Counted from the stretch's first letter, positions 37,722 to 53,480 are shown. The stretch: DNA of 59,905 nt from a bacterium (GCA_030427445.1 JAUIBQ010000005.1:1-59905); one strand, 5' to 3'. The notes: generated by a model not told the origin, from the letters alone. Numbers and translations are program-made.

Positions 37722-37730
37722 CTTAGCTAT

Positions 37731-38486
37731 TTAAATATCAGAAGCTTTGTCTACAAGTGTCGCTTGGATGCGATAGGGCAGAAAGCGCACGAATAGATTA
37801 GTAAGTAGTTTGTTTGAGAAGCCGTGTGTGACCTCGACTTTACCACTCATCATTGCGTCATACCCTAGTTGTGCGACGTCTTTTGGATCGGCTCCTTGAC
37901 TGTGCTGAGGTGCATTTGCCTCCTTGAAAAAAGAGGTCTTTGTAGCTCCTGGATGGAGTGCTGTCACAGTGACACCATACGGTTTCATGCTGTGTGCGAG
38001 TGCACGAGACAAGCTGCGGACGTATGCTTTCGTAGCATAGTATACCGGCTGCTTTGGCCCTGGAAAAAATGAAGCTACGGAAGCTGTGTTGAGTATCTTT
38101 CCGCCTCCTTGTTTTTTGAAGTCTTTGCCAAACAGGTAGCAAAGTTCAGTGAGCGACTGCATATTTAGGTGCATCATGTTCTGGTACGTTTCTAGACTAC
38201 CTTCAAGAAAATCTCCGACATAACCAAACCCTGCGTTGTTCACTAATATTCGGATATTTTTATCTTTCAGGTCAGTGTGTAACTTTTGTGCTGATCTGGG
38301 CTTGGATAGATCTGCAGGATAGATGTCTACAGCTACCCCATATTGCTCTTCCAAAGTCTTGGCTATCTCATCAAGTTCTTTTTTACTGCGCGAGTTTAAT
38401 ACAAGGTCATGGCCCTTAGATGCCATGAGGTTCGCTAGTTCTAAACCGATGCCACTACTTGCTCCGGTGATAAGTGCTTTTTGCAT
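37731..38486 (-). CDS. SDR oxidoreductase (DltE-like)
   Basis: TGASSGIG, NNAGFG and YYATK motifs. Confidence 0.93.
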   Translation of the reverse strand: MQKALITGASSGIGLELANLMASKGHDLVLNSRSKKELDEIAKTLEEQYGVAVDIYPADLSKPRSAQKLHTDLKDKNIRILVNNAGFGYVGDFLEGSLETYQNMMHLNMQSLTELCYLFGKDFKKQGGGKILNTASVASFFPGPKQPVYYATKAYVRSLSRALAHSMKPYGVTVTALHPGATKTSFFKEANAPQHSQGADPKDVAQLGYDAMMSGKVEVTHGFSNKLLTNLFVRFLPYRIQATLVDKASDI

Positions 38487-38503
38487 AGTTTCCTCAAATT
38501 AAA

Positions 38504-38534
38504 TACACCCCCAGTATGACATACCAGGGGTGTA
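38504..38534 (-). terminator. Hairpin downstream of the RRM gene
   Basis: TACACCCC/GGGGTGTA stem; weak U-tail. Confidence 0.45.
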
Positions 38535-38554
38535 GCTTTCAGCGGTTGCTCGAC

Positions 38555-38884
38555 TTAGTAGCGTCCGCGTCGGTCGTTGCCACCGAAGTTACGGTTGCCG
38601 CCACCGTTATTGTCGAAAGAACGACGTGGTCGCTCTTCGCGAGGTCGTGCTTCTGACAGGTTGATTGCTCGTCCGTTAATCTCTTTACCGTTTAGGGTAT
38701 CTAGAGCTTTTTTGCCATCGTCTTCGTCTTCCATTTCGACAAAGCCGAAGCCTTTTGAACGTCCAGATTCGCGATCTTTGATCACGACTGCACTTTTAAC
38801 TGCACCAGCTGATTCGAAAAACTCACGGAGTTCATCATCAGTGACGCTGTAGGCAAGTCCGCCTACGTATAGGTTTTTAGCCAT
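38555..38884 (-). CDS. RRM RNA-binding protein
   Basis: RNP2 LYVGGL, RNP1 KGFGFVEM, G/R-rich tail; AAGGA RBS favours the MAKN start. Confidence 0.95.
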   Translation of the reverse strand: MAKNLYVGGLAYSVTDDELREFFESAGAVKSAVVIKDRESGRSKGFGFVEMEDEDDGKKALDTLNGKEINGRAINLSEARPREERPRRSFDNNGGGNRNFGGNDRRGRY

Positions 38885-39100
38885 ATACATCCTTAAAATT
38901 AGTTTATGTACGCCTGTTGTTCTCTTATCCTGCTCACGATTGTTGTTAGTACGTATAAACTAATGAACTTACGGAGTGTAATAGTAACTACTTGCAAGCA
39001 GGATTATACCAGAAATTGACTTATTAAGAAAGATAACGAAAATTTTACAAGAATCAATTAAGTAAAATATAGTTTTATAGCTTGCTGTACAATTGCATAT

Positions 39101-39499
39101 ATGAGCAAAGCAACACAGTACTACACTCCAGGAGTTTGTAACATCAATAACGTAGAGTCTGCGTCTCGTAAGAAAATTGCGTATGTATTCTTTGTATTAG
39201 CGTTATTATTTATTCTGCTAAGTATATTATTCGCGTTAAGTTTCTACAGCATTATTATCACTTTTCCTCTCATGTTTATTGCTTCGCTTAATTATCTGCA
39301 AGCTAAAAACAATTTTTGCGTCATGTATGCGAAAAATAACCTTTTTAATTCATCTGAAGCATTTGCAGACACTGAGAAAATCACAGATGAACATGCTATC
39401 AGAGCTGATTCACAGAAATCTCAGAGAATGTATCTACACTCTGCTGGTTTTGCGTTTTTACTGTCACTTGCCCATTTGCTGATACTGTTATCTAGATAA
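39101..39499 (+). CDS. Hypothetical membrane protein
   Basis: Y.PGVCNI...E...R and QA...FC motifs; three TMs. Confidence 0.7.
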   Translation: MSKATQYYTPGVCNINNVESASRKKIAYVFFVLALLFILLSILFALSFYSIIITFPLMFIASLNYLQAKNNFCVMYAKNNLFNSSEAFADTEKITDEHAIRADSQKSQRMYLHSAGFAFLLSLAHLLILLSR

Positions 39500-39578
39500 T
39501 GTAAAACAAGCTTACTTATGTAAAAAGTATTCTATACTACTAAGTTTTTCATACCAGATAAAATGCTATAGTAAGAGT

Positions 39579-40034
39579 ATGTTAGATTTGTTTAATCATG
39601 AGATTAAAGATTTTATTTCACAGCACACGACAGCCGTTATAGCTACGGTAGATAGTGAAGGTCAGCCACACACTTCAACCATATATTTTAGTTACGAGGA
39701 AAAAGATAAAATATACTTTTTAACTAAAGATCGTACAACCAAGTCTCAGAATTTAGAAGCGAACAACAAAGTAGCGATTACAGTTTTAGATAAAAACCAG
39801 GCTATTGCTGTCAATATCACCGGTACAGCGAAGGCAGTTGAAGATATTGCCAAGCGTGACAGTGTGATGCAGAGTGTATTGAAAATCTCGCACGATAATC
39901 AAGCTGATTACGCACCAATAGTGAAACTGCATAAAGGTGGATTTAAAGTGTTCATGTTGACTCCAACTCAAGCGAAAATGACAGATTTTACAAAGCCGAT
40001 GGGGGAAGTAAAAGAAAAACTAAAGAATTTTTGA
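39579..40034 (+). CDS. Pyridoxamine 5'-phosphate oxidase-like split-barrel protein
   Basis: IATVD.EGQPH and K..NL..N.KVA motifs. Confidence 0.85.
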   Translation: MLDLFNHEIKDFISQHTTAVIATVDSEGQPHTSTIYFSYEEKDKIYFLTKDRTTKSQNLEANNKVAITVLDKNQAIAVNITGTAKAVEDIAKRDSVMQSVLKISHDNQADYAPIVKLHKGGFKVFMLTPTQAKMTDFTKPMGEVKEKLKNF

Positions 40035-40074
40035 AATAACAAAAGATAAGTTGTAAAAACAGGTGGGATAAAAC

Positions 40075-40866
40075 ATGAGTTTAGAAAACAAAGTATTCGT
40101 TGTGACTGGAGCTGGCGGGGGTATCGGTAGTGAATTAGCATATGGTCTGTTACAGCGTGGTGCAAAAGTTGTAGCGGTCGACCTAAATGAAGAAAACTTG
40201 AAGCTATTCGAGACACAGGTCAATAGTCCAAATTTAAAGATTGTAGCGCTCGACATCACAGATGAAGAAGCAGTCCACAAGCTCCCGGACATCGTCAAAG
40301 AGACGTTTGATACAGTCGAAGGACTCATTAATTGTGCTGGGATAATCCAACCATTTGTTAAGGTGAAAGACTTAGAGACAAAAACAATTAAAAAGGTGAT
40401 GGATGTAAACTTTTATGGCACGCTTTACATGACACAAGCATTTCTGCCAAAACTTCTAGAAAGACCGGAAGCGCATCTCGTAAATGTCTCAAGTATGGGT
40501 GGTTTTTTACCTGTGCCAGGCCAAAGCGTATACGGGGCATCAAAGGCAGCAGTGAAGCTACTCACTGAAGCACTCTATGCTGAACTGAAAGGCACCAACG
40601 TCCATGTTTCTGTTGTATTCCCAGGAGCTACAAAAACTGATATCACCAACAACTCTGGTGTCGATACACCTGGAGATGCTTCTAATTCTGACTATCCAAT
40701 GCTTTCTGCAGAAGAAGTTGCAACTAAAATATTGAACGGAATTGAAAAGAAGAAATACCAGATTTTTACGGGGAATGACTCTCGATTCATGAACATTCTC
40801 TACCGTATCTATCCTAAATTTGCGACCAACTTCATCGCTAGTAAAATGCAAAGCCTGTTGTCTTAA
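40075..40866 (+). CDS. SDR oxidoreductase
   Basis: TGAGGGIG, NCAG, NVSSMGG and YGASK motifs. Confidence 0.93.
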   Translation: MSLENKVFVVTGAGGGIGSELAYGLLQRGAKVVAVDLNEENLKLFETQVNSPNLKIVALDITDEEAVHKLPDIVKETFDTVEGLINCAGIIQPFVKVKDLETKTIKKVMDVNFYGTLYMTQAFLPKLLERPEAHLVNVSSMGGFLPVPGQSVYGASKAAVKLLTEALYAELKGTNVHVSVVFPGATKTDITNNSGVDTPGDASNSDYPMLSAEEVATKILNGIEKKKYQIFTGNDSRFMNILYRIYPKFATNFIASKMQSLLS

Positions 40867-41783
40867 ATTTTTACGACGACACTCCCTTTTTTATGGCCAG
40901 TGTCTACGTAACGATTTGCTTCGACAATCTCTGATAAGTCATAAGTCTTGTCTATCGTCGCTGTTAACTGACCAGCATCAAACATTTTTGCAAGTATTTC
41001 TAGGTCCGATGAAAGTTCTTTAGCAACATCAAGACTGTCGACAGTAACGTACGCCCCATTGTCTGCTATGAGGTGCTTTGCGGCAGATTTTGGCAGCTTC
41101 CCAACAGCATCAAATACAATATCGAATGTTTCAGTAATGTCACTCAGTTTTGTGGATGTGTAGTCATGCACATTGTTTGCTCCTAGTTTCTTAGAGAGTT
41201 CGATACCGTCTGGACCACAAATCGCCGTAACATTTGCTCCGTAGTTTTTCGCAATTTGTACTGCCATAGACCCAACAGCTCCAGTTGAACCATTAATAAG
41301 TACATTACTACCTTTCTCTAAACCAGCTTTACGTAGAAAATACAGCGCAGTATTACCACCAAAAGGTAGAGCACTGGCTTCTTCGTGTGTCGCTTTCTTT
41401 GGTTTAAGCGCAATCGCCCGTTTATCGGGTAAAGCACAATATTCTGCATATGCACCGAAACTAAAGCCTGCCATAGCATACACTTCATCGCCGACTTTGA
41501 ATCTTGTTACATCTCTACCTATTTCTACAACTTCACCTGATAATACGCTTCCTGGGATCCTCTTGGGCCTGCGCAATCCTAGTACTATCCGTAAGATAAT
41601 CTTACTTATTACTCCTTTAAGGCCTTCGCCACCATCAAGCGCACGCATACGAACATCACCAGAGTTTACGGTTGCTGCTTTTACTTTTATTAGTATTTCA
41701 TTTTGTTTAATTGTCGGCTTAGGCACGTTTTTCACAGAAAGTACTTCCGGTGCTCCGTATCCATTTGCTATAACTGCTTTCAT
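40863..41783 (-). CDS. NAD(P)-dependent MDR (Zn-independent alcohol dehydrogenase/quinone reductase-like)
   Basis: YGAPEVL, GAYAEY, NGSTGAVG and GHKKG motifs. Confidence 0.9.
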   Translation of the reverse strand: MKAVIANGYGAPEVLSVKNVPKPTIKQNEILIKVKAATVNSGDVRMRALDGGEGLKGVISKIILRIVLGLRRPKRIPGSVLSGEVVEIGRDVTRFKVGDEVYAMAGFSFGAYAEYCALPDKRAIALKPKKATHEEASALPFGGNTALYFLRKAGLEKGSNVLINGSTGAVGSMAVQIAKNYGANVTAICGPDGIELSKKLGANNVHDYTSTKLSDITETFDIVFDAVGKLPKSAAKHLIADNGAYVTVDSLDVAKELSSDLEILAKMFDAGQLTATIDKTYDLSEIVEANRYVDTGHKKGSVVVKI

Positions 41784-41792
41784 AGTACTCCT

Positions 41793-42473
41793 TTATTTTT
41801 TAGTTTCTTTTATGTGTTTTAGGCGAATTTTCTCTAATCCCTCCAAGATAATAGAAAGCCCGAAATCAAAATCTTGCTGGCCATCGTGAGTGCCATCAAT
41901 AATACTCTGAGTCATTGCACGTGCATGGGGAAGTTCAGTCTCTGATAAGTACGGTAAATATTGTTGCGCAACTTTTTTGTATTCTGAAGCTTCAATAGGG
42001 AAGTCTTCCCGCTGCATGTTAAACCCATAGATGTAGCTATCGATAGTGTTCCAAGCATAGTCGGCTAATTGAGTGCTAAACCCTGCCTGCAGGAGATAGC
42101 CAATTGTTGAATCAGAATATTTCAACATACGTCGTCCGTCATTAAAGCCGGATATAAATAAGTGTGCAGCCCACGAATGCTTTTCTAGGACTTCCTTAAC
42201 TATGTGGGCACGTTTTGTCATTGCTTCTCGCCAATTGATGTCGGCACTTGGTGGATTAACTTCAGGTGCTACATACTCGACCATTGCTGCGATTAAAGCA
42301 TTTTTATTGGCGACATGGTGATACAGTGACATAGCTTCAACGCCCAACTTACTTGCCAGCTTACGCATCGATAGTGAATCAATGCCTTCAGTATCAGCAA
42401 TTTCTACTGCCGTTGCAATAATCATGCCGTGAGTCAGTTTCGGCCGATTTTTTTTCTTGACTTTATCATTCAT
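41793..42473 (-). CDS. TetR/AcrR regulator with TetR_C domain
   Basis: LSMRKLA..LGVEAMSLYHHV.NK HTH; FDFGL.IIL.GL tail. Confidence 0.93.
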   Translation of the reverse strand: MNDKVKKKNRPKLTHGMIIATAVEIADTEGIDSLSMRKLASKLGVEAMSLYHHVANKNALIAAMVEYVAPEVNPPSADINWREAMTKRAHIVKEVLEKHSWAAHLFISGFNDGRRMLKYSDSTIGYLLQAGFSTQLADYAWNTIDSYIYGFNMQREDFPIEASEYKKVAQQYLPYLSETELPHARAMTQSIIDGTHDGQQDFDFGLSIILEGLEKIRLKHIKETKK

Positions 42474-42483
42474 ACATAATAAC

Positions 42484-42496
42484 CTTACAGTGTAAG
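42484..42496. promoter_or_regulatory. Candidate TetR operator CTTAC-AGT-GTAAG
   Basis: Palindrome in the divergent promoter between tetR and the membrane-protein operon. Confidence 0.6.
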
Positions 42497-42533
42497 TCTA
42501 TTATACACTAATAATTGCGTAAAGGAGCTTTTA

Positions 42534-42656
42534 ATGGAATTACTATTTACTTCTGATGCATGGGCATCGCCTGGAGGAGTAGGATTTTTTCTACTTTGTT
42601 TGAGCGTATTCTTCTACCTCATGTTTCGTTTAGACGTTAAAAATAAGAAGAAATAA
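42534..42656 (+). CDS. Small single-TM protein, 40 aa, not in ORF track
   Basis: AAAGGAG RBS; MELLFTSDAWASPGGVGFFLL...KNKKK. Confidence 0.6.
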   Translation: MELLFTSDAWASPGGVGFFLLCLSVFFYLMFRLDVKNKKK

Positions 42657-42669
42657 GGACATTAGTGTC

Positions 42670-42819
42670 GTGTCAAAAACAGGTAAATCAAACTGGCGCA
42701 AAGGTGCTGGACTTGCAGTCGGTCTTTTAATCGGTGTACTGCTTGCAGTAGTGTCGGGTAACAACGGTTTATTTGTAATTGGAGTTGCAATCGGTGCGGC
42801 TCTAGAAGCCAAAAAATAA
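42670..42819 (+). CDS. Small glycine-zipper membrane protein, 49 aa, not in ORF track
   Basis: GTG start; GAGLAVGLLIG...IGVAIGAAL; co-oriented with its neighbours. Confidence 0.6.
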   Translation: MSKTGKSNWRKGAGLAVGLLIGVLLAVVSGNNGLFVIGVAIGAALEAKK

Positions 42820-42851
42820 CAATAAGCTCTAATTTTGAGCAAGGGGGAACT

Positions 42852-43490
42852 ATGAAACTAACAACAGCAAAATTAACAGGTCTATTTTATCTAGGCCTTG
42901 CAATAACAGGTGTATTTGCATTTTTATTCGCGAGAGACCAGTTGCTAGTCGCTGGAGATGCAACTCAAACAGCAGCTAATCTCGTAAAAGACGAAACACT
43001 TGCACGTTTTGGTATAGCAGCAGAGGTACTAATTGTAGGGTTTCAGGCACTTGCGGCAGTGTGGTTCTACAAATTATTTAAGAAAAAAGACAGCTTTACC
43101 GCTGGTCTAATCGCAGTATTCGGTATGGTAAATGCCATCGTTATATTGACGGCTTCTGCTTTTTGGTTAATGGCACTTAATACTGCTGTAGCCGGTGGTA
43201 GTAGCGACACAGTACTAACACTATTTGATGCACACGAAACACTATGGCAAGTTGGTGCTTTGTTCTTTGGCTTATGGTTGTTACCGATGGCTTACATGGC
43301 TCAGAAATATGACATGCCACGTGGTATGGTTTGGTTCTTAGTGGCTGGTGGAATTGGTTATGTGCTATCAACCTTTACGGGTATTGTACTGCCAGAACAA
43401 ACTACTCTAAATGAAGCGCTACCAATGCCAGCAACTATTGGCGAATTCTGGATGATTGGCTACCTACTCTTTAAGGATGTGAAAGGCTAG
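42852..43490 (+). CDS. DUF4386-like membrane protein
   Basis: GLFYL, GDA..TAAN, FFGLWL and GEF...GYLL motifs. Confidence 0.8.
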   Translation: MKLTTAKLTGLFYLGLAITGVFAFLFARDQLLVAGDATQTAANLVKDETLARFGIAAEVLIVGFQALAAVWFYKLFKKKDSFTAGLIAVFGMVNAIVILTASAFWLMALNTAVAGGSSDTVLTLFDAHETLWQVGALFFGLWLLPMAYMAQKYDMPRGMVWFLVAGGIGYVLSTFTGIVLPEQTTLNEALPMPATIGEFWMIGYLLFKDVKG

Positions 43491-43494
43491 CACA

Positions 43495-43872
43495 ATGGAT
43501 ACTATAGGGTGGATACTACTTGCATTGCTTGCAGTGCAAGTAGTGTTCCAAGCAAAACTGGCTCTCGGCGCTCCGTTGGGACATATCGCATATGGCGGTA
43601 GACACAAAGGCGCTTTGCCAAAAAACTATCGGATTATTAGTGCTGTCGCAGTTCTTGTGTATTCTTTTTTTATGACCATTGTTGTCATGGCTTCCACTGC
43701 GGATAACGGTGTAAGTTCTAGCAGTCTTATCGAAATTGTACTCTGGATTATGGCAGTATTTTTTGGGCTTGGCACGATTGCGAATGCGTTTTCCCCAAGC
43801 AAGCCTGAACGGTGGTGGGCAGTATATACTCTAGCTACACTTCTCTGTACTCTGTATCTATTACAAGTTTAG
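43495..43872 (+). CDS. Hypothetical membrane protein
   Basis: LALGAPLG...YGG...LP..R and N..S.S..ER motifs; four TMs. Confidence 0.75.
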   Translation: MDTIGWILLALLAVQVVFQAKLALGAPLGHIAYGGRHKGALPKNYRIISAVAVLVYSFFMTIVVMASTADNGVSSSSLIEIVLWIMAVFFGLGTIANAFSPSKPERWWAVYTLATLLCTLYLLQV

Positions 43873-43936
43873 AAAACAAAGACAGAATATTCTCGTAGTG
43901 TTTACGCTTGGGTATATCAGTAGGATGATTTTAGGG

Positions 43937-44341
43937 CTATTCCCATACTTTGGCTTTGTTTAGTAACTTTGGATATTCAGGTTGAAGTATACAGAATTCA
44001 TTGTCAAAAGGATCAAGCATAACCCAATAATTAAAACCTCTTTCATGCATATACTTATGCTTTTTAGCTCCAAATTTCTCGAGTCTACTTGCTTCAGCTT
44101 CTATATCGTCGGTTTCTATATCTATATGTATTCTTGTTTTGCTGGTCTTTTCTTCAGGGACTAGCTGCAGGAGTATTCGTATGTCATTATCGGGAATTTT
44201 CAGCCTTCTGTATGTAGTATCGCTGTTGCCTATCGTCGAGAACTCTTCAAGTTTTGCACCAAATGCGTTGGTGTAGAAGTGTAGTGCTTTATCAAAATTG
44301 TTGACGTCAATAGTTATATAGCAGAGTCTACTTTTATGCAT
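43937..44341 (-). CDS. VOC/glyoxalase-like protein
   Basis: IDV, FY, VPE.K..K.RIHID and VMLDP..NEFC motifs. Confidence 0.88.
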   Translation of the reverse strand: MHKSRLCYITIDVNNFDKALHFYTNAFGAKLEEFSTIGNSDTTYRRLKIPDNDIRILLQLVPEEKTSKTRIHIDIETDDIEAEASRLEKFGAKKHKYMHERGFNYWVMLDPFDNEFCILQPEYPKLLNKAKVWE

Positions 44342-44520
44342 AAAATAAGTGTACCAAAAAGCAAATTAATGTAGTGTAGATTTACGGATTCAATCTGACG
44401 ATTGGCCCTGATAAAGTATAAGATATAGTTTTGTTCCGAGATATAACCTACTATTCGTATGTGTTGTCTATTTAAGCAGACACAGTAGTCTAAAGTCATA
44501 TTTTAGGTATACTGTAATTT

Positions 44521-45045
44521 ATGAAGACAAAAATTAAGCGCAGTAAAAAAGAAATAGCAAAAACAGTTTTAATAATAGTTGCGGTTGCTATATTGGCTTT
44601 TATGACAATCATTAGTGAATCAAATACTGTTAGAAAATTTCGGATTAATTCATTAAGTAATAACATTCTGAACGACTTCAATGGTAGTACCAATAGTGAT
44701 TTGAAAGATTTTGAATCAAGAAATTTCTGTAGAGAAGCAGGTGTAAAATTTCAAAGATCATATGAGTTCTGCATATCTGAACATAGCTCATCTCTATATA
44801 ATTCTGCCACAAAATTTAACGAGTCTGTAGATGTATATAATTATTTTGATAAAGACTGGAAAATACGGCAAACAGAACAAGAATCCCTTAAGTCTAAAAT
44901 AAAAGATGAAGAAGTTACCTATAGCGGTAAAAAAAGTTTCTACGGCAATGTTAATTGTAGTGTATGGTATAGCTATCACACGTCAACAAAATATGAGTCA
45001 TTGCGTATATCGTGTAGCTTTAGAAAATCAAGTGCTTTTTTGTAA
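44521..45045 (+). CDS. Hypothetical AT-rich membrane-anchored protein
   Basis: N-terminal TM; four Cys; leaderless TATACT promoter. Confidence 0.6.
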   Translation: MKTKIKRSKKEIAKTVLIIVAVAILAFMTIISESNTVRKFRINSLSNNILNDFNGSTNSDLKDFESRNFCREAGVKFQRSYEFCISEHSSSLYNSATKFNESVDVYNYFDKDWKIRQTEQESLKSKIKDEEVTYSGKKSFYGNVNCSVWYSYHTSTKYESLRISCSFRKSSAFL

Positions 45046-45170
45046 TACGTAACATCTTTATTTACCTATTCACATCATCGTCATATACGGAGCAGGCATC
45101 TATGCATAGCATGCATCATATCGTTAATTTCATACTCTACTTAACAACCAACATTTGTCAGATAATTAGT

Positions 45171-45794
45171 TTATTTGCCTTTGTATTGAAATATATAACA
45201 CGTGGCAGACGTAACGTAACCTGGTCCTTTTCCGGTTTTTAGCAGCTCTTTCTTCGAATCATTTTGTCTATCTTTACGTATGAAATACTGCTCTAACTTT
45301 TCTTCGGATAAACGCCACGCTTGTTTCGTGTGTTTTGCTACAGCGATAAGTTTAAAGTCTTTATCTAAATGTGCCATTGTAGCATCGCCATGACTATTGT
45401 TTGCGACAAATATCCCGCCTTTTTTTAGATACTGTTTGCCTGCCTGAGAGACAAACCCAGCATATTGCGATAACAACAAGTCGAAATCGTCATCTATATC
45501 CAGTGCCGTGTCGTAGTTCTGCTTCAAAAATGTGTACCGAGAAGGTTGAGCGTATTGTTTATTATTCGCTATAAATGCTTCCGCTTCTTCGCTCTCTACC
45601 ATCTTTTTAAAGGCATCATATGAGTCCACATACACTACTTCTGGGTATACCAGGCTAGGGGTTATATGAATGTGGCTTCCTAGGTACAGTGCCTTTTTGA
45701 CCGCGTACTTTTGCTGCAGTAATTCGAATAAGCCTAATCTGTCAAACTGACGTGATATGAAGTATTTATTGTACTCATCTAGAAAATGTTTCAT
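45171..45794 (-). CDS. Hypothetical protein, possible SAM-dependent methyltransferase fold
   Basis: LYLGS, YVD, FDLLLSQYAG and LKKGG motifs. Confidence 0.55.
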   Translation of the reverse strand: MKHFLDEYNKYFISRQFDRLGLFELLQQKYAVKKALYLGSHIHITPSLVYPEVVYVDSYDAFKKMVESEEAEAFIANNKQYAQPSRYTFLKQNYDTALDIDDDFDLLLSQYAGFVSQAGKQYLKKGGIFVANNSHGDATMAHLDKDFKLIAVAKHTKQAWRLSEEKLEQYFIRKDRQNDSKKELLKTGKGPGYVTSATCYIFQYKGK

Positions 45795-45892
45795 AGATTA
45801 AGTATCTCATACATTATTAATACTAAGCCGAGTGTGCACAATTTTCTTATGGTGTCTGTAGAGTACGCATCAAGTACGTTGATGGGACGACT

Positions 45893-46309
45893 CTAGTTAA
45901 GTATTCCGACAGTAAGACCGATCAGCGCAAACTCAACGATAACCCACGTAGCGTCAATCCACATGAGCTTAAATGGTCGCAGAGCGAATGCGTATAAAAA
46001 TAGTATTTGCGATGCAGCAAGCCCCACACCTAGAACGGCACCATCAAACAGTCCGTCAAACCAACCTTGAGTGTCAGCCAGCACAACATTTAGCGTAAAT
46101 GCTCCAACACTGCTCGTCACAAGAACTAGCGGCATAATCCGGCTCACGTATGCTTTCTCTATGTCTTTTGCTTTAACCTCAACCGCTTCCATCCATGGCT
46201 TACCTGCAAGGCTGCTACTGTACCAGACGAAGCTCCATACCATGCTTACGACAACAGATACCGCCACAGCTACCCAATTCACGTTGTTTAACATTTCTGA
46301 TAAATCCAT
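45893..46309 (-). CDS. DUF1761-family membrane protein
   Basis: NW.AV, WYS...GKPWM and RPFKL..ID motifs. Confidence 0.8.
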   Translation of the reverse strand: MDLSEMLNNVNWVAVAVSVVVSMVWSFVWYSSSLAGKPWMEAVEVKAKDIEKAYVSRIMPLVLVTSSVGAFTLNVVLADTQGWFDGLFDGAVLGVGLAASQILFLYAFALRPFKLMWIDATWVIVEFALIGLTVGILN

Positions 46310-46410: not shown

Positions 46411-46419
46411 CATCTATTC

Positions 46420-46598
46420 CAGCTTGGCTCCGGGGACTGGATTCCCCAGGGAAATTTTGGAGAGCTTTAGCACGTGCTAGTACTGCACGCTCTGGCTCAA
46501 AATATCGAACCAGCCCTTTCAGGGCAATCTGGTTCGATTCTACATCTTCGATGTAAAAGAAAAAGCCCCGACAAATGTCGAGACTTCATTTTTGGCTC
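46420..46598 (-). repeat. tRNA-Asn 3'-end-linked repeat unit C (att-like)
   Basis: 46425-46444 is a 20-bp exact match to the tRNA 3' end; the T-arm remainder follows at 46505-46514 after an insertion; then hairpins and a TGGCTC core at 46593. Confidence 0.85.
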
Positions 46599-46690
46599 GC
46601 TGTGGTGAGCGAGTTACGAACTACTCATATACTACTTTAATCTGTTCTAGAACTGTGACATAATTAATTTAACTAATTTAATTTATACAG

Positions 46691-47953
46691 ATGGTACAAA
46701 TACTTAACGACTCAAAAACTGATATCCATGTCATTAAAACTGATTTTGGAACTAATGAAATAAACTTTGTAGAGAGAAAAGGTATTGGACACCCAGATAC
46801 ACTAGCAGACAATCTTGCTGAGCACCTAAGTGCAAAATATTCTCGATACACGTTAGAAAAGTTTGGAGCAATCTTACACCACAATTTTGATAAACTTGGT
46901 ATTCTAGGTGGAAAATCTTTAGTAAAATTTGGCAGCGGAAAAATGACTAGCCCCATAAGAGTGCTAATTAACGGGCGAATATCTGATAAATTTGGCGACG
47001 AAACAATACCTTTTAGAGAGATGCTTTCGTCAGCTACGTACGAGTTTATAAGTGCTCGATTCGGTGAGTTGATCCCCGAAGATATGGTATCTATAACATT
47101 TAATATAAGTACAGCAAGTAGTCCTGGGCATTCAGACAAGAATGATAAAAGCGGCAGTAGTCGCAATTACTGGTTCCAACCTAGAGGGTTAAATGATCTA
47201 CCAGAAATACATAGTTTGTTCTCGAATGATACTTCAATTGGATGTGGGTATTACCCTTTAAGAAGTATTGAATCCTATGTCTTAATGCTGGAAAACGACC
47301 TCACATTAGGTGAGTTTGCCAAGAAACACGTTTGGGCTGGTACAGATGTTAAGATAATGGGTTCTGATATAGAAGGGAAAGTAGATATAACTCTATGCGT
47401 TCCTCAGATCTCTAGATATGTTAATGACATCGAAGAGTATAAAGCAAACATCAAGATCATAAAGGACTATTTAACTGAGCATTCTCAGAAAAATTTAGGG
47501 AGTAAGGTCAATTTTAATCTCAATACGCGTGATGATTACGAAAGGCAAGAGCTATATCTGACAGCTACTGGATCTTCGATTGAAAGTGGTGATGAAGGCT
47601 TGGTAGGTAGAGGTAACCGTGTTAACCAGTTAATTACGATCAATAGTCCTATGAGCATGGAGGGTGCAAGTGGAAAGAACCCTGTATATCACATCGGAAA
47701 ACTCTACTATATAGCAGCCCATCAAATAGCAAAGAAGGTTTATGAAAAATTCGATGGCCTGCAGAATGAAGTGTATCTAGTGAGTAACAGCGGCAGGGCA
47801 TTAATCAGTCCTTGGAAGACCGTAATCAAGGTGCCGAAAAATAGTAATGTTAACCAATCAGACGTAGAGTCATTTGTTGTTGGATGCCTCAGAGAGATAC
47901 CGCAAATTACAAACGAATTAGTGTCAGTAAATTCAGAATTAGTTATCTCATAA
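46691..47953 (+). CDS. Archaeal-type S-adenosylmethionine synthetase (MAT)
   Basis: ERKGIGHPDTLAD, HHNFDK, NDTS, TGSSIESGDEG.VGRGNR and GKNPVYHIGKLY motifs. Confidence 0.9.
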   Translation: MVQILNDSKTDIHVIKTDFGTNEINFVERKGIGHPDTLADNLAEHLSAKYSRYTLEKFGAILHHNFDKLGILGGKSLVKFGSGKMTSPIRVLINGRISDKFGDETIPFREMLSSATYEFISARFGELIPEDMVSITFNISTASSPGHSDKNDKSGSSRNYWFQPRGLNDLPEIHSLFSNDTSIGCGYYPLRSIESYVLMLENDLTLGEFAKKHVWAGTDVKIMGSDIEGKVDITLCVPQISRYVNDIEEYKANIKIIKDYLTEHSQKNLGSKVNFNLNTRDDYERQELYLTATGSSIESGDEGLVGRGNRVNQLITINSPMSMEGASGKNPVYHIGKLYYIAAHQIAKKVYEKFDGLQNEVYLVSNSGRALISPWKTVIKVPKNSNVNQSDVESFVVGCLREIPQITNELVSVNSELVIS

Positions 47954-48031
47954 GTATGAAGTAGCTAGCTTTAATCTATAGTTGTATTTCTGTACAAAAT
48001 GTACTAAAGTATCAGTAGGAATTATTTACCA

Positions 48032-49312
48032 ATGCATGACTTACGTGAGATATTTTCTGAAGAGCAGTTTGGACAGACTGTCGAAGCTTTGCAATATCGT
48101 GGTTTTGAGCTAACTGAAGGCGATAGAGCCGTCTATTATGAACTTAGATCGTTGCGAAGTGGCCAAGAAGATTTACGTGCAGATAAAAATAGAATAGCGG
48201 CACAGTTTAAAGATTCAGACGACCAAAGGCGAGCTGAACTTAGAGAAGAATTGGCTACAGTTGAAAGTGCATTAGAAAGTGCTAAAGAACAGCTTGAAGG
48301 GGTTGAGCCTGGATTTAATGACAGAATGCTCAGAATGCCAAATATATCTGCTCCTCACGTACCTATCGGTGGATCAGAAGATGAAAACGTTGAGGTTTCT
48401 GTTCATGGTGAAATTAAGGTGTTACAAGGTGATGTTACATTAGATCATCTTACTCTTGGCACAAGACTTGGTATTATTGATAACGATAATGCCGCCATGC
48501 TATCGGGCTCTAAATTTTCTCTTTTACGCGGTGAAGGTGCTGTACTAAAACGAGCATTGATAAATTTTATGCTAGACAGCTCTACAGCAAATGGCTATGA
48601 GGAGGTTGATGCTCCATACTTAGTTAGACCCGATATAATGCAGGGGACAGGTCAGTTACCAAAGTTCGATGATGACATGTTTAAAACCACAGACAATAAA
48701 GGTAATCCTCTATATTTGATTCCTACCACTGAGGTTACATTGACCAACTTATTAAGAACTCATGTGTTCTCTCCCGAAGAACTTCCGTACAAGCTTACTG
48801 GATCATCAGAGAACTTCCGCCGCGAAGCTGGAAAGTCAGGGCAGGACACTAAGGGACTAATCAGGAATCATCAATTCCCAAAAATCGAGTTAGTTAGAGT
48901 TGCACACCCAGATGATTCTTGGGAAAGTTATTACGAGATGATAGATGAAGCAAGTTTGGTTCTAGAAACCCTGGGCTTACCTTATCGGCATCTTGATCTT
49001 TGTACGGGAGACTTAGGAGTTGCTGCTATGGCAACGAGGGACCTTGAAGTTTGGTTACCTAGCCAAGGCCGTTACCTGGAGGTTTCTAGTGTTAGTAACA
49101 CTGGGTCTTATCAATCTCGTAGAATGGGTATGAAATTTCTTAATCCAGAAACTGGAAAACGTGAATTTGTTCATACACTTAATGGTACAGCAGTAGCTGT
49201 TGGAAGAACACTAGCTTGCATACTAGAAAATGGCCAGAATCCAGACGGTTCAGTAGACATTCCAGAGGCACTGCATGATTACACTAAGTTTAGTAGGATT
49301 ACGACTGAATGA
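48032..49312 (+). CDS. serS: Serine--tRNA ligase (islet-borne)
   Basis: N-terminal coiled coil; GTGQLPKF, LIPTTEV, FRREAG, GLIRNHQF, EVSSVSN and HTLNGT..A.GR motifs. Confidence 0.95.
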   Translation: MHDLREIFSEEQFGQTVEALQYRGFELTEGDRAVYYELRSLRSGQEDLRADKNRIAAQFKDSDDQRRAELREELATVESALESAKEQLEGVEPGFNDRMLRMPNISAPHVPIGGSEDENVEVSVHGEIKVLQGDVTLDHLTLGTRLGIIDNDNAAMLSGSKFSLLRGEGAVLKRALINFMLDSSTANGYEEVDAPYLVRPDIMQGTGQLPKFDDDMFKTTDNKGNPLYLIPTTEVTLTNLLRTHVFSPEELPYKLTGSSENFRREAGKSGQDTKGLIRNHQFPKIELVRVAHPDDSWESYYEMIDEASLVLETLGLPYRHLDLCTGDLGVAAMATRDLEVWLPSQGRYLEVSSVSNTGSYQSRRMGMKFLNPETGKREFVHTLNGTAVAVGRTLACILENGQNPDGSVDIPEALHDYTKFSRITTE

Positions 49313-49956
49313 CAGGAGCTATTTTTATAGGTGGTGGTGGTGGAAAAGAAGATGCTGTTGAATTAGATGCAGCATATAAAAATAAAGTATTATCTTCATC
49401 GAAATCACCAAGTTGCTTGTATATTCCCCATGCTATGGAGTCAGGAAAACATAGCAAAGCTCTTCACTGGTTTACTGAAACGTATGACTTCTTTGAGGAT
49501 ATTAAGTTACTGCAAGCCCCTAAAGATTTAGAGGATGAATACGATAGCATCTATATGGGTGGAGGATATTGTCATAGGCTAAGAGATACTCTAATAAGCT
49601 TTGATGTCCATTCGGCGTTTTTTAAATCTTTTATTGGAAAAGGCGGCAGCCTATATGGTGGTAGTGCAGGAGGGGTTGTTCTAGGAAAAACCTTATTGTC
49701 ATCAAGAGAAGTTATGTTACGACCTGAAACGTTTCTGCCTTTAGACCATCAGGGCATGGATATTTGCAACGGACTTAGCTTTAGGCCTCATTTTACAGGC
49801 AGCAAAGACGAGGCTTTAGCAATAGAATCTCTTTCTAGGGAGCAAGAAATAGCAGTAATAGCTCTTAGCGAGGGAGCTGGAGTAATAATACAAGAGGGCC
49901 AAGGACACGAACTCATTAACCCTGATCTTGCTCTAGAATTTGGTGTGGACTTATGA
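49309..49956 (+). CDS. Peptidase S51 (PepE/cyanophycinase-like)
   Basis: IGGG, YIP.A, YMGGG, YGGSAG, PHF and LSE motifs. Confidence 0.8.
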   Translation: MTGAIFIGGGGGKEDAVELDAAYKNKVLSSSKSPSCLYIPHAMESGKHSKALHWFTETYDFFEDIKLLQAPKDLEDEYDSIYMGGGYCHRLRDTLISFDVHSAFFKSFIGKGGSLYGGSAGGVVLGKTLLSSREVMLRPETFLPLDHQGMDICNGLSFRPHFTGSKDEALAIESLSREQEIAVIALSEGAGVIIQEGQGHELINPDLALEFGVDL

Positions 49957-50963
49957 TTAATATTGAAGCTTTTGAAGCTCGAATGAAATGTCTAGAAGCG
50001 TATTCTTTCTCAGAAAGATATGCAACTGCAGTATCTAATTTAGCTGATCTGTATACGGAAATCGAATATGTTGAACCTATGCCGCTAGTTCGTGATATAG
50101 ACGTAGACTCAACCTTACTAACTTCCTCCGGTTTACAGTATATGAACCAGTTCATACATGGTGATATGCCAGTACCCAACCATGCGTTCTTGATATCACA
50201 GCCTGTCGTTAGGATGAACTATCTCCCTACTGTGTCTATGGGGTCATATACAAACTTCGTCAATTTCGGCACAATGCAAATTGGCTTAAACCAAAATGAA
50301 CATACCACTTTAAGCAATGAGTACCGAGATGTCTTGGCTGAAGCAGCTGGAAGTGATGTGACTACAATTACTGTCAGCGAAGATTTAAAGCATAACAGAA
50401 ACGGAATGGATTATAGAACATACCATGAGAATTACGTTGTCGATGACCTTGAGGTCGCCGATTCTCTTTTTCACGAAATTGTTCTAGCAGATGGTGCAAC
50501 TATAACATTGTCAGAACTTGGGGGTGGTTTAGAGAGACTATTATTCGGAAGATCACCTCTAGTAATTCAAGAAACAACAGGTATTAGCACAATAGATGCT
50601 ACCAATATCGAAGCAGCTGACGCTTTTAGGGGCGCAGTCTTGATAGCTGGAAACAGTGTTAGGCCTTCAAATAATAACCAAGGCTACCAATTGCGCCGAC
50701 TTTTAAAGCGTATGCCAGATACTTCAGCAGACCTACAAGAGTTTATGGAATCGTTAGCATTCAGCCAAGTACCACAAAGATATTGGCAAGATATTGGCGG
50801 AACGCAACTTCCATTCAAAGAAACTGCAGACATAGTTAGAAAAGAGTTATGGCGTAACGTAAACTTGGCAGCCTTAAGTAGAGCTGGAGTTAAATCTAAG
50901 TCAAAAATGGATCTCTCTATGGACCCAGTAGCTTTCTCTACTAAATTTAGTCTAGGTGAATAG
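49953..50963 (+). CDS. Truncated alanyl-tRNA synthetase-like protein (catalytic domain only)
   Basis: STLLTSSGLQ, SQPVVR, ELGGGLERL and ADAFR....GNSVRPSNNNQGYQLRRLLKR mirror the AlaRS N-domain; no editing or C-Ala domains. Confidence 0.75.
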   Translation: MINIEAFEARMKCLEAYSFSERYATAVSNLADLYTEIEYVEPMPLVRDIDVDSTLLTSSGLQYMNQFIHGDMPVPNHAFLISQPVVRMNYLPTVSMGSYTNFVNFGTMQIGLNQNEHTTLSNEYRDVLAEAAGSDVTTITVSEDLKHNRNGMDYRTYHENYVVDDLEVADSLFHEIVLADGATITLSELGGGLERLLFGRSPLVIQETTGISTIDATNIEAADAFRGAVLIAGNSVRPSNNNQGYQLRRLLKRMPDTSADLQEFMESLAFSQVPQRYWQDIGGTQLPFKETADIVRKELWRNVNLAALSRAGVKSKSKMDLSMDPVAFSTKFSLGE

Positions 50964-51590
50964 ATTATCTAGGCGTTTTATACCTTCTGGGTTAAAAATA
51001 TCAACTATCCTATCATTGCAAAATATTAAGCCAGAGCTCTCGCTAAGTCCGATAAGATTTGAATTAAATCTCTTTGCTTCGGCTATATGACGATTACTAA
51101 ACTCACCATATAAATGTGGCACAAGAGAGGAGTTATTCAAATAATTGTACCCATGATTATCGTTTGACTCAACAAATTCATCAGTTGGAGCTACCGTAAT
51201 TGTTTTGCCAAAAATAATTGCTCCAGCACTTCCTCCGTAAACAAGACCACCGCTGTTGATATGTTTACTTATGTAATCATCAAGTCCATAATGAGCGAGG
51301 GTATATAGTAGCTTACCAGTGTTGCCGCCTCCTATGTATATAAGATCATATGTTTTCTTAGAAAAAGCTTTAGCACTAGCTGAGCTAGTCACTGTATCTA
51401 TACTTTCAAGATATCCGTACTGACTCTTAAACCAATTAACAGCGTCACTATAGTAATCATTCTTTAACGCTACGGGTATATATAGACATCTAGAGGACCC
51501 ACGCTTAAGTAATGCTTTTCGTAAAGATAGATCAATCTTTTTTGATTGTTTAGCGTTGCCACCGCCCGATAGATATATTAAACCTTTCAT
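50952..51590 (-). CDS. Peptidase S51 (second paralog)
   Basis: LSGGG, YIPVA, YIGGGNT, YGGSAGA, PHL and LSE motifs. Confidence 0.82.
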   Translation of the reverse strand: MKGLIYLSGGGNAKQSKKIDLSLRKALLKRGSSRCLYIPVALKNDYYSDAVNWFKSQYGYLESIDTVTSSASAKAFSKKTYDLIYIGGGNTGKLLYTLAHYGLDDYISKHINSGGLVYGGSAGAIIFGKTITVAPTDEFVESNDNHGYNYLNNSSLVPHLYGEFSNRHIAEAKRFNSNLIGLSESSGLIFCNDRIVDIFNPEGIKRLDNLFT

Positions 51591-51655
51591 AATTCACAAT
51601 TGTACATATGATAGATACCTTTGACAAATATAGGTCAATATTATAAGTTATACAT

Positions 51656-52255
51656 ATGACAAATAACGAAATGACTCTTGAAACTTATGAACGTAATATT
51701 GACAAGTTTATTGAACGCACGCCTAAAGACACTATTGGTGAAACTAAAGTTTGGCTTGATGCAATCGCAGAAAGAGTTTCTACAGGCAGCAGTGTGCTTG
51801 AAATAGGAAGCGGCTTTGGACGTGATGCCGACTACTTAAGGTCAAAAGGTATTGGAGTGTTGTGTACTGATGGAGCTGCTGGTTTTGTTAAAGCGCTAAG
51901 AGCGCGAGGTCATGAGGCTATGCAACTAAACGTACTTACTGACGAGATAGACGGTTCTTATGATCTAATATTTGCAGATGCAGTTTTCGAACATTTTACT
52001 CGTGACCAACTTGCTTACGCCCTTTCAAAACTAAATAGGGCCACTGTAGATGGTGGAACTTTAGGTTTTAGCATCAGGAGAGGTGAAGGTGAATATTGGT
52101 CAAAAGAGAAATTAGATGAAGATAGATTTTTTTGTTTGTGGGAACCTGACCAACTAGGTTTCGCCGTAACCGCTGCTGGTTTTAAGGTCGATAGTATTTC
52201 AGAGAGCAATGGCTATCAAAACATAAAAAGACTTTACCTACTTGCTACCAAATAG
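51656..52255 (+). CDS. Class I SAM-dependent methyltransferase
   Basis: VLEIGSGFGRD, TD and YDLIFA.AVF.H motifs. Confidence 0.88.
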   Translation: MTNNEMTLETYERNIDKFIERTPKDTIGETKVWLDAIAERVSTGSSVLEIGSGFGRDADYLRSKGIGVLCTDGAAGFVKALRARGHEAMQLNVLTDEIDGSYDLIFADAVFEHFTRDQLAYALSKLNRATVDGGTLGFSIRRGEGEYWSKEKLDEDRFFCLWEPDQLGFAVTAAGFKVDSISESNGYQNIKRLYLLATK

Positions 52256-52341
52256 TTTTAGTAGATTTCCATTTTATTGCTACTTTGCTTCATAACTAAA
52301 GTATCTCACGAAACAAAAACACTATGTTTCCATAGTGCTTT

Positions 52342-52556
52342 CAGCTTGGCTCCGGGGTGAGAAAGTCCAGTGGACTTTTGCAAGGGAGACCACTCTTGAA
52401 CACTTGTTTTCAAAGAGGTGGCGACGGGGTCGCGGAACGTGACTGGATAGAATCAACACAACAAATCTGTGCGCCTGGAGCAGGGCAGCAGACTTGATAT
52501 CGAACCAGCGACCTCGAAGTTAACAGCTTCTTGTCCGCTGTACAGCGGACTACCCA
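52342..52556 (-). pseudogene. Interrupted tRNA-Asn copy (repeat unit D)
   Basis: Pieces at 52347-52357, 52441-52448 and 52500-52533 (34 bp identical to 53424-53457, including the anticodon), separated by hairpin insertions; D-arm degenerate. Confidence 0.8.
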
Positions 52557-52607
52557 GTATTTAGTATTAATTTCTTGGCTCAGCTTACAGGTCACGGACT
52601 TTAATAA

Positions 52608-53030: not shown

Positions 53031-53118
53031 AAACCTACTATAGCAGATGCTTAGATTAAAATAGCAGGCTATTCAGTAGCGCGAAAGCTTACTGGATAGC
53101 CTGTAAAATATATGCTCT

Positions 53119-53260
53119 TGGCTCCGGGGACTGGAAAGATAAAATCCGCCCGTCTACCAAGCTAAGGCTTGGTGGGGGATTTCCGCCCCAGCTTCGCTGG
53201 TTCAATTCGCATACTGCGAACTTAAACTAAAAACAGACCCGATTGGGTCCGTTCTTAGTT
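53119..53260 (-). repeat. tRNA 3'-end-linked repeat unit A
   Basis: TGGCTCCGGGGACTGGA followed by CCGCCCGTCT..CAAGC hairpin, GCTTCGC and a terminator hairpin. Confidence 0.85.
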
Positions 53261-53405
53261 TGGCTCCGGGGACTAGAAGCCTATGGAAATTCCGCCCGTC
53301 TGCAAGCTAAGCTTGCGGGGGAATATCGAACCGCTTCGCTGGTTTAATTCGCTGTTCGCGAACTCAAAAGAAAAGAGTCAGACAAAATGCCTGACTCTTT
53401 TCTAT
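53261..53405 (-). repeat. tRNA 3'-end-linked repeat unit B
   Basis: TGGCTCCGGGGACT with the same internal motifs as unit A; ends in the tRNA terminator AGAAAAGAGTCAG/CTGACTCTTTTCT. Confidence 0.85.
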
Positions 53406-53480
53406 TGGCTCCGGGGACTGGATTCGAACCAGCGACCTCGAAGTTAACAGCTTCTTGCTCTACCGCTGAGCTACCCCGGA
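53406..53480 (-). tRNA. tRNA-Asn(GTT), CCA encoded
   Basis: Reverse complement TCCGGGGTAGCTCAGCGGTAGAGCAAGAAGCTGTTAACTTCGAGGTCGCTGGTTCGAATCCAGTCCCCGGAGCCA folds as a cloverleaf; TATAAT upstream. Confidence 0.97.

Follow-up and report, generated by a model that had tools for sequence, protein, structure and literature searches.

The window analysed here is the whole of one contig (C36; GCA_030427445.1, JAUIBQ010000005.1:1-59905), a stretch of 59,905 nucleotides in a 966-kb genome of 43 contigs that is 97% complete. The closest relatives of this genome are named Candidatus Saccharibacteria, and the host is thus Saccharibacteria-like. At 46691–52255 the window carries a cassette of six genes. 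These encode an archaeal-type methionine adenosyltransferase (MAT, the synthetase of S-adenosylmethionine, SAM), a second and foreign seryl-tRNA synthetase (SerRS), two PepE/MccG-like serine hydrolases of peptidase family S51 (S51a and S51b), a truncated protein related to alanyl-tRNA synthetase (AlaRS) that we call AlaL, and a class I SAM-dependent methyltransferase (Table 1). Calls of open reading frames (ORFs) and profile scans returned the six genes and families that an earlier note, made from the sequence alone, had described. The core of the cassette, AlaL together with an extra aminoacyl-tRNA synthetase (aaRS), an archaeal-type MAT and S51 hydrolases, is conserved through rearrangement in other Patescibacteria, down to AlaL proteins that are 22–26% identical.

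The stop and start codons of SerRS and S51a (49309–49312), and those of S51a and AlaL (49953–49956), overlap in ATGA junctions that can be read directly, as the earlier note had said, and S51a is translationally coupled to SerRS and AlaL through them. S51b is convergent with AlaL and, as also described there, forms a divergent pair with the methyltransferase gene, the two being separated by a 65-nt spacer.

Boundaries and mobility of the cassette

The repeats of transfer RNA (tRNA) ends previously suspected around the cassette are real. An intact tRNA-Asn(GTT) gene, the integration target, lies downstream, and a displaced copy of its 3′ end (46424–46444) is identical to 53405–53425 at 21 of 21 positions. 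The displaced copy is followed by its own terminator-like hairpin, which was read by eye and is listed by no scan. Further partial copies of the tRNA-Asn 3′ end are found at 52346–52357, 53118–53138 and 53260–53280, and the core CCCCGGAGCCAA is common to all five tRNA-Asn 3′ ends, that of the live gene included. A 19-nt direct repeat (46417–46435 and 52339–52357; 18 of 19 positions identical) encloses exactly the six cassette genes.

The right boundary also holds a decayed tRNA-Asn copy on the minus strand (52346–52560), which was called by neither ARAGORN nor Rfam. Its segment 52500–52533 matches tRNA positions 24–57 at all 34 nucleotides, its 5′ part has diverged, and its T-arm is about 142 nt away from the final 12 nt of the acceptor end. 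This copy could be either the attachment site used originally or a scar left by recombination. Two tandem units between the island and the live tRNA-Asn gene share a 42-nt block that is 79% identical, and they resemble scars left by earlier insertions. Rfam gave nothing significant in 45.5–54.5 kb except tRNA-Asn.

The GC content of the cassette is 39.1%, compared with 42.8% for the genome, and the GC content at third codon positions is 0.27–0.34, compared with 0.35–0.44 in six other long genes of the contig. Like other genomic islands at tRNA 3′ ends, the cassette is enclosed by direct repeats of a tRNA-Asn 3′ end, has its own hairpin on the displaced copy and is lower in GC. Unlike them, it shows several nested partial copies that resemble attachment sites and no detected mobility gene: no recombinase or integrase family was recognised in the seven ORFs of at least 100 aa scanned in 46.4–53.4 kb, a scan that left aside an overlapping 162-aa frame (46678–47166, minus strand) and ORFs shorter than 100 aa. 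The cassette is horizontally mobile: it has been inserted at the 3′ end of tRNA-Asn, and it occurs in unrelated genomic contexts.

Table 1. Genes of the cassette and features of its boundaries, with coordinates in the window.
Feature	Coordinates	Strand	Evidence
Archaeal-type MAT (SAM synthetase), 420 aa	46691–47953	+	PF01941, 343.6 bits (cut-off 27)
Second, foreign SerRS, 426 aa	48032–49312	+	TIGR00414, 433.1 bits (cut-off 301.65)
S51a, PepE/MccG-like S51 serine hydrolase, 215 aa	49309–49956	+	PF03575, 47.3 bits (cut-off 23.9)
AlaL, AlaRS-like, 336 aa	49953–50963	+	Weak PF01411/TIGR00344 match; AlaRS fold
S51b, second S51 hydrolase, 212 aa	50952–51590	-	PF03575, 83.4 bits (cut-off 23.9)
Class I SAM-dependent methyltransferase, 199 aa	51656–52255	+	Pfam Methyltransf_11/12/25
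Left boundary	46417–46444	-	Displaced tRNA-Asn 3′ end and left 19-nt repeat
Right boundary	52339–52545	-	Right 19-nt repeat and decayed tRNA-Asn copy
Two tandem units of about 142–145 nt	53111–53397	-	Each ends in a partial tRNA-Asn 3′-end copy
Intact tRNA-Asn(GTT), integration target	53406–53480	-	ARAGORN; Rfam RF00005, 65.7 bits

AlaL and its partner enzymes

AlaL comprises the aminoacylation and tRNA-recognition domains only. Its AlphaFold2 model (pLDDT, the predicted local distance difference test, of 93) has AlaRS catalytic fragments as its top PDB matches in Foldseek (E 1e-10, TM(query) 0.55–0.62), and the AlaL profile matches AlaRS with an E-value of 3.8e-15. With 24.2 bits against TIGR00344 (cut-off 457), it fails as a canonical alanine–tRNA ligase. 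When E. coli AlaRS is aligned with AlaL, R69 corresponds to R87, IEIWN becomes LEVAD (N212 to D170), DTGMGLER becomes ELGGGLER (D235 to E188), and PSNENRGYVLRR becomes PSNNNQGYQLRR. The class II arginines of motif 2 and motif 3 are invariant in 40 of 40 family members, none of which has Asn at the N212 position. The D235 position is Asp in 26 of these members and Glu in 14, and it is Asp in the four distant carriers described below. All eight cassette-type proteins have the equivalent of D170, Glu at the D235 position, and the Asn of the PSN motif, which corresponds to E. coli N303, the reader of U70 in G3:U70.

These residues bear on the reading that AlaL is a working miniature synthetase that charges tRNA with alanine or a near-cognate amino acid, the cassette then altering or backing up translation. 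The mini-AlaRS of Tupanvirus is described as active with the aminoacylation domain only; this protein of 461 aa is further described as having aminoacylation and tRNA-recognition domains and motifs 1–3, and as acting on tRNA-Ala (PMC10036535). AlaL, too, is a natural AlaRS reduced to the same two domains, and it has lost neither the two class II arginines nor the PSN Asn. Its active-site residues are changed, however, with no Asn at the N212 position in any family member and Glu for D235 in the cassette type, its TIGR00344 score is far below the cut-off, and at 336 aa it is 125 aa shorter than the viral enzyme. The window genome, moreover, retains a normal AlaRS on contig C33 and has an ordinary set of 40 tRNAs. 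The reading also leaves the linkage of AlaL to S51, MAT and an extra SerRS or glycyl-tRNA synthetase (GlyRS) unexplained, and we consider it very improbable. The idea of a special tRNA was rejected as well, as the 40 tRNAs are ordinary and G3:U70 is present in tRNA-Ala only.

The housekeeping AlaRS matches listed in the class are mostly open frames of about 600–730 aa, with a few shorter ones at contig ends; a typical bacterial AlaRS has about 875 aa. The short frames suggest that the C-terminal (C-Ala) domain is missing from these enzymes. Two unpublished genomes, G341 and G245, enter tallies only, namely those of the class-wide AlaRS matches and, G245 at least, of the 401-genome sample described below.

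A word-based search with AlaL found seven proteins among 5.8 billion, and a HMMER scan of 1.84 billion cluster representatives gave four at E ≤ 1e-30 and 186 at E ≤ 1e-3. Every family member with a source name in those searches is a “hypothetical protein”, and the only names returned by a wider-family profile search were “hypothetical protein” and canonical AlaRS. In the ESM Atlas, the clusters of the family are unnamed and occur most often in Actinomycetota and Bacillota. A search of the IMG/VR viral contigs did not recover AlaL, and tblastn against plasmids with P0001 (AlaL) and P0014 found nothing. The nearest outgroups of cassette AlaL are P0010 and P0012 (31–32% identical). Both are fusions of about 700 aa that join an AlaL domain to a GT1-like glycosyltransferase domain, and they are 46% identical to each other. 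A complex prediction for AlaL with S51a, run without controls, scored 0.00 and speaks neither for nor against binding.

The match of the cassette SerRS to TIGR00414 covers model positions 16–418, while its N-terminal domain, at 26.8 bits, is slightly below the Pfam cut-off of 28.2. A housekeeping serS is located on contig C31 (1810–3084), with a product 29% identical to the cassette SerRS, and a bacterial metK is located on contig C38. Because the genome has both, the cassette SerRS and MAT are extra copies. The possibility raised in the earlier note that this serS might be the sole, vertically inherited copy therefore falls away; it is a second, foreign gene beside the one on C31. A SerRS search of 40 relatives (E ≤ 1e-20) returned one match in 38 of them, two near-identical matches on two contigs in one, and none in another. 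All of these matches are 29–36% identical to the cassette SerRS, and the C31 SerRS shares 38–40% identity with its counterparts in three relatives from the same family.

A tree of 29 SerRS unites the 10 cassette-type sequences in a single clade (support 100/100) on a long stem of 1.46. This clade stands apart from the housekeeping Saccharibacteria clade and is placed among other bacterial SerRS; the nearest named matches outside the cassette type, at 44–49% identity, are from Aquificota and other groups. Of the four housekeeping sequences in the tree, two (L023 and L024) belong to unpublished genomes (G403 and G411), which also give two of the identity values for the C31 SerRS; L025 and the remaining relatives support the same conclusion. 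Two SerRS each are present in G000, G490, G562, G864 and G1024. The C31 housekeeping SerRS is itself divergent, with a tree branch of 1.87 and a TIGR00414 score of 347 bits, compared with 390–454 for the housekeeping SerRS of G185, G562 and G490 from the same order. Constraint on it may have been relaxed after the second SerRS arrived.

The cassette protein is probably a MAT of the archaeal type; its Pfam match is split by an insertion. Against archaeal MAT structures in the PDB the protein reaches an E-value of 2e-66 with the signature blocks aligned, and against NCBIfam models it stays below all cut-offs (e.g., 323.7 vs. 435). Among other genomes sampled, archaeal-type MAT turned up in 10 of 200 Patescibacteria and in one of 100 from the order. 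All seven AlaL-bearing genomes have it, and in six of them it lies within the AlaL cluster. No bacterial metK was detectable in G562. The one other archaeal-type MAT among the 100 genomes of the order, in G185 (L027:7564–14440), is 33% identical to that of the window. Its neighbours are GT2, GFO/IDH/MocA-like oxidoreductase, shikimate-dehydrogenase-like, xylose-isomerase-like TIM and F420-0:gamma-glutamyl-ligase-like genes, and about 5.5 kb away is a methyltransferase gene homologous to that of the cassette (41% identical).

S51a and S51b, which are 30% identical to each other, are the only S51 genes of the genome. The columns of the GGSAG Ser, the PH His and the SE Glu are kept in all eight S51 sequences (four of four orthologues for each paralogue), and a Ser-His-Glu triad is predicted from the alignment and spacing. 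MccF, which the earlier note had offered as a precedent for such hydrolases, belongs to family S66 and not to S51. A published S51 case nevertheless exists in MccG, described as an immunity enzyme that cuts the carboxamide bond of processed microcin C (PMC9239234). In that account, stand-alone MccG homologues confer resistance to microcin C, and PepE gives no protection against it. The cassette hydrolases resemble MccG in family and in their Ser-His-acid triad, and MccG is described in or near clusters for aaRS inhibitors. The aligned third triad residue, on the other hand, appears to be Glu in the cassette proteins, as in PepE, and Asp in the MccG clade. The cassette further differs in that it has two S51 paralogues, with neither a nucleotidyltransferase of the MccB type nor an MccA-like precursor among its six genes.

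The top Foldseek matches of the methyltransferase are RPA2492, TehB, phosphoethanolamine methyltransferase, DhpI and RebM. These are generic small-molecule methyltransferases that give no specific clue to its substrate, and the enzyme probably acts on small molecules as well. Its gene is accessory to the cassette, missing at locus L009 and exchanged for a radical-SAM gene in G490.

Recurrence of the module

The gene order MAT-SerRS-S51a-AlaL-S51b, with or without the methyltransferase gene, was found at L007 (the same genome as G562) and L009 and partially at L008, the encoded proteins being 41–81% identical to those of the window. Nothing outside the cassette is common to these three loci and the window; the neighbouring tRNA gene is tRNA-Asn at L009 and tRNA-Gln at L008. 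In G490 (L031), SerRS-S51a-AlaL and S51b-MAT-radical SAM/SPASM lie on opposite strands, with proteins 36–60% identical to those of the window. Among 401 sampled genomes of the order, three (G000, G490 and G562, each from a different family) carry AlaL (E ≤ 1e-30), and exactly these three carry the cassette-type SerRS (E ≤ 1e-100).

A wider-family profile run on 400 other Patescibacteria added four AlaL carriers, three of which (G864, G1024 and G871) have the AlaL proteins that are 22–26% identical to that of the window. In G864 and G1024, AlaL-S51 lie on one strand and MAT-SerRS on the other, as four-gene clusters with nothing else. A large serine recombinase with Recombinase and zinc-ribbon domains adjoins this module in G1024 (L042:668–1915). 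The G871 cluster (L040:6996–16841) runs on one strand as HAD-MAT-AlaL-GlyRS (fused alpha and beta)-GT4-GT1-PIG-L deacetylase-hexapeptide acyltransferase, a layout that recalls mycothiol- or bacillithiol-style clusters. Its MAT is 51% identical to that of the window, and a dimeric GlyRS is encoded elsewhere in the genome, the alpha/beta GlyRS of the cluster being an extra copy. In the fourth carrier, G934, AlaL lies at a contig edge and is followed by an S51 gene and later by a methyltransferase gene. The aaRS gene adjoining AlaL is an extra SerRS at six loci and an extra GlyRS at one.

The genes therefore do co-occur elsewhere, at three close, one rearranged and three distant loci, a point on which the earlier note had made its interpretation depend. 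This recurrence also bears on the view that horizontal acquisition brought housekeeping-like genes together by chance and that they have no function in common. Such a view would fit the accessory-rich stretch at 36–46 kb upstream and a cassette without an integrase among the scanned ORFs. Against it stand the linkage at seven other loci that differ in flanks, order and divergence and come from independent assemblies, and the identical distribution of AlaL and the cassette SerRS in the 401 genomes. We give it next to no credence.

Possible products and alternative readings

A dedicated aaRS paired with an aaRS-like transferase has lately been recognised as a route to aminoacyl-nucleoside antibiotics such as ascamycin and albomycin, and to our knowledge such pairs have so far been known from Streptomyces. 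We favour a related reading of the six genes, to which we give an about even chance of being right. They would form a mobile module for biosynthesis. The extra aaRS would furnish serine in activated form, AlaL would hand it on to an amine acceptor that may derive from SAM, and the S51 enzymes would hydrolyse the product or keep it in check. On our analysis, its most likely output would be a serine-bearing small molecule.

In such a pathway, the dedicated SerRS would make activated serine, either as Ser-tRNA(Ser) or as seryl-adenylate. AlaL, no longer charging alanine, would then pass the seryl group on to an amine (or hydroxyl) acceptor bound in the pocket that formerly took the adenylate. The precedents would be the AcmF/AcmD pair of ascamycin and the AbmF/AbmK pair of albomycin, in which AbmK is a SerRS. 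The MAT would supply SAM, as an acceptor or scaffold or as a co-substrate, and tailoring would be left to the small-molecule methyltransferase here and to the radical-SAM/SPASM enzyme in the G490 variant. The S51 hydrolases would break the amide bond to the aminoacyl group, and so protect the producer, turn the product over or release it, much as MccG acts on aminoacyl-nucleotides. We infer, in particular, that the extra aaRS feeds its donor to AlaL, and that AlaL is an aminoacyl transferase or ligase acting on a small acceptor.

AcmF of the ascamycin pathway is described as a truncated AlaRS-like protein with the changes N219Q and D232E, of which Glu232 is essential; it moves the aminoacyl group from aminoacyl-tRNA, charged by the cluster AlaRS AcmD, to the amine of a nucleoside sulfamate, and its donors include seryl and glycyl (PMC12945691). 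As in this system of Streptomyces sp. 80H647, AlaL is truncated to the same two domains and has a dedicated aaRS in its cluster. Both of the AlaRS positions described as changed in AcmF (Q219 and E232) are changed in AlaL (D170 and E188), the first to Asp here and to Gln in AcmF. In contrast to AcmD/AcmF, the partner aaRS is a SerRS (a GlyRS in G871) and not an AlaRS, no sulfamate or halogenation genes are present, MAT and S51 are constant partners, and the host is a Patescibacterium with a genome of about 1 Mb.

In albomycin biosynthesis, the cluster SerRS AbmK is described as supplying the seryl unit as well as immunity (AbmK/SerRS2), the aaRS-like AbmF as joining this unit to the nucleoside amine, and the radical-SAM enzyme AbmJ and the N-methyltransferase AbmI as tailoring enzymes; the same source names VlmL as the SerRS of the valanimycin cluster (PMC9032320). 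The cassettes share with this described system an extra divergent SerRS and an aaRS-like enzyme, with a radical-SAM enzyme or a methyltransferase in their variants. They differ in lacking thioheptose, siderophore and non-ribosomal peptide synthetase genes, in having a condensing enzyme derived from AlaRS, and in their small size of only 5–6 genes. The suggestion in the earlier note of a mobile pathway with an extra aaRS and an AlaRS-like enzyme thus gains support from the conserved linkage and from the AcmD/AcmF, AbmK/AbmF and MccG precedents. Its idea that the pathway uses its own SAM supply is too narrow, as the MAT is linked also in clusters without a nearby SAM-using tailoring gene.

The main rival is a resistance or immunity islet that makes nothing: the SerRS, and with it the MAT, would be insensitive replacement targets, while S51, AlaL and the methyltransferase would detoxify antibiotics from neighbours or hosts that are aminoacyl-nucleosides or analogues of SAM. 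Such an islet accounts well for the SerRS and S51 genes. A second divergent SerRS is described as giving albomycin immunity (AbmK/SerRS2; PMC9032320), stand-alone S51 homologues of MccG are described as giving microcin C resistance (PMC9239234), the cassette SerRS sits on its long stem of 1.46, and the cassette has neither a scaffold-building gene nor an exporter. It does not account for the radical-SAM/SPASM enzyme that stands in the place of the methyltransferase in G490 or for the extra GlyRS that replaces SerRS beside sugar-tailoring genes in G871, and the translational coupling of SerRS, S51a and AlaL also speaks against it. Nor does it account for AlaL, around which the module is always built and for which no role in resistance is known, or for the linkage of a MAT that is the sole one found in four genomes and is hence no spare target there. 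We consider such an islet unlikely.

The earlier note had left open whether the cassette makes a compound or protects against one. The evidence leans towards making, short of proof of biosynthesis, because a radical-SAM enzyme replaces the methyltransferase, GlyRS replaces SerRS, and the MAT belongs to the core even where it is the sole MAT. Protection from phages, which the note had also mentioned, was rejected as a leading idea: PADLOC gave no match for seven of the eight proteins scanned and, for the methyltransferase, only a weak generic one (mad2, 29.8 bits).

Several observations weigh against a biosynthetic module. No gene for a nucleoside or other scaffold (MAT aside) and no exporter gene was found among the cassette genes, and neither a methyltransferase nor a radical-SAM gene adjoins the cassette at L009. 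A conserved precursor peptide was likewise not found among ORFs of at least 18 aa in the intergenic regions of five loci, which leaves a scaffold peptide of the pearlin type, or of another ribosomally synthesised and post-translationally modified kind, unsupported. The archaeal-type MAT is the only MAT found in G871, G864, G1024 and G934 (their metK searches were negative), and it is for that reason also a housekeeping enzyme there. AlaL could itself form an adenylate without aminoacyl-tRNA, because both class II arginines are kept. Its tRNA-recognition domain, with the U70-reading Asn, would by its residues suit tRNA-Ala above tRNA-Ser, so that Ser-tRNA(Ser) may not be what connects SerRS with AlaL. 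The likeness of AlaL to AcmF is taken from the published description of AcmF and not from a sequence alignment. Finally, there are nine loci in all, found only in Patescibacteria assemblies and metagenome contigs, and some of them are interrelated.

The biosynthetic reading has a more specific form, which we think distinctly unlikely, in which SAM is a stoichiometric acceptor. AlaL would bind its adenosyl part in the former adenylate pocket and acylate it with a tRNA-delivered seryl or glycyl group. The possibility arises because MAT is present in seven of seven AlaL genomes against a background of 10 in 200, and because the clusters of G864 and G1024 consist only of AlaL, S51, MAT and SerRS. 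The product might be an aminoacyl-SAM that acts as an antimetabolite; alternatively, lactonisation might turn it into an N-aminoacyl-homoserine lactone signal. S51 would hydrolyse the amide. LuxI-like lactonisation of a SAM-derived acyl product, with loss of methylthioadenosine, is the parallel. If true, the enzyme logic would be new: a synthase descended from an aaRS that depends on tRNA and takes SAM as its substrate. It would also be the first small-molecule pathway of such a kind in the candidate phyla radiation.

The same chemistry could instead act on another acceptor, AlaL aminoacylating an amino-sugar or a cell-envelope glycoconjugate to give a surface or redox metabolite similar to mycothiol or bacillithiol. 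In G871, AlaL and genes for GT4, GT1, a PIG-L de-N-acetylase, a hexapeptide acyltransferase and a HAD hydrolase stand together on one strand, a layout that parallels MshA/MshB/MshC/MshD of mycothiol, and the nearest AlaL outgroups, P0010 and P0012, are the fusions to a GT1-like domain. Glycosyltransferase and deacetylase genes are, however, absent from the window cassette and its four closest relatives, and the constant linkage to MAT is left unexplained, so that we hold this acceptor to be decidedly improbable.

Ultra-small Patescibacteria are thought to be nearly devoid of secondary metabolism. The cassette places a compact, mobile pair of an aaRS and an aaRS-like enzyme among them, with the archaeal-type MAT and S51 as unexpected constant partners and an aaRS partner that is interchangeable between SerRS and GlyRS. 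No publication on such a cassette was found in the literature on Saccharibacteria SerRS, on aaRS-bearing biosynthetic clusters of Saccharibacteria or on archaeal-type MAT. Should the product be a bioactive seryl-conjugate, it would offer a handle on how these epibionts interact with their hosts or competitors. The module would in that case also provide a new family of AlaRS-derived enzymes of about 330–400 aa for chemoenzymatic aminoacylation, and a testable case of SAM as a building block.

Many accessory-looking genes lie upstream of the cassette, at 35817–46309. They encode a protein with an M14 carboxypeptidase domain, two short-chain dehydrogenases/reductases, a PNPOx-like protein, a zinc alcohol dehydrogenase, a TetR protein, a DUF4386 protein, a glyoxalase-like protein and a DUF1761 protein, and this stretch may form a larger variable region.

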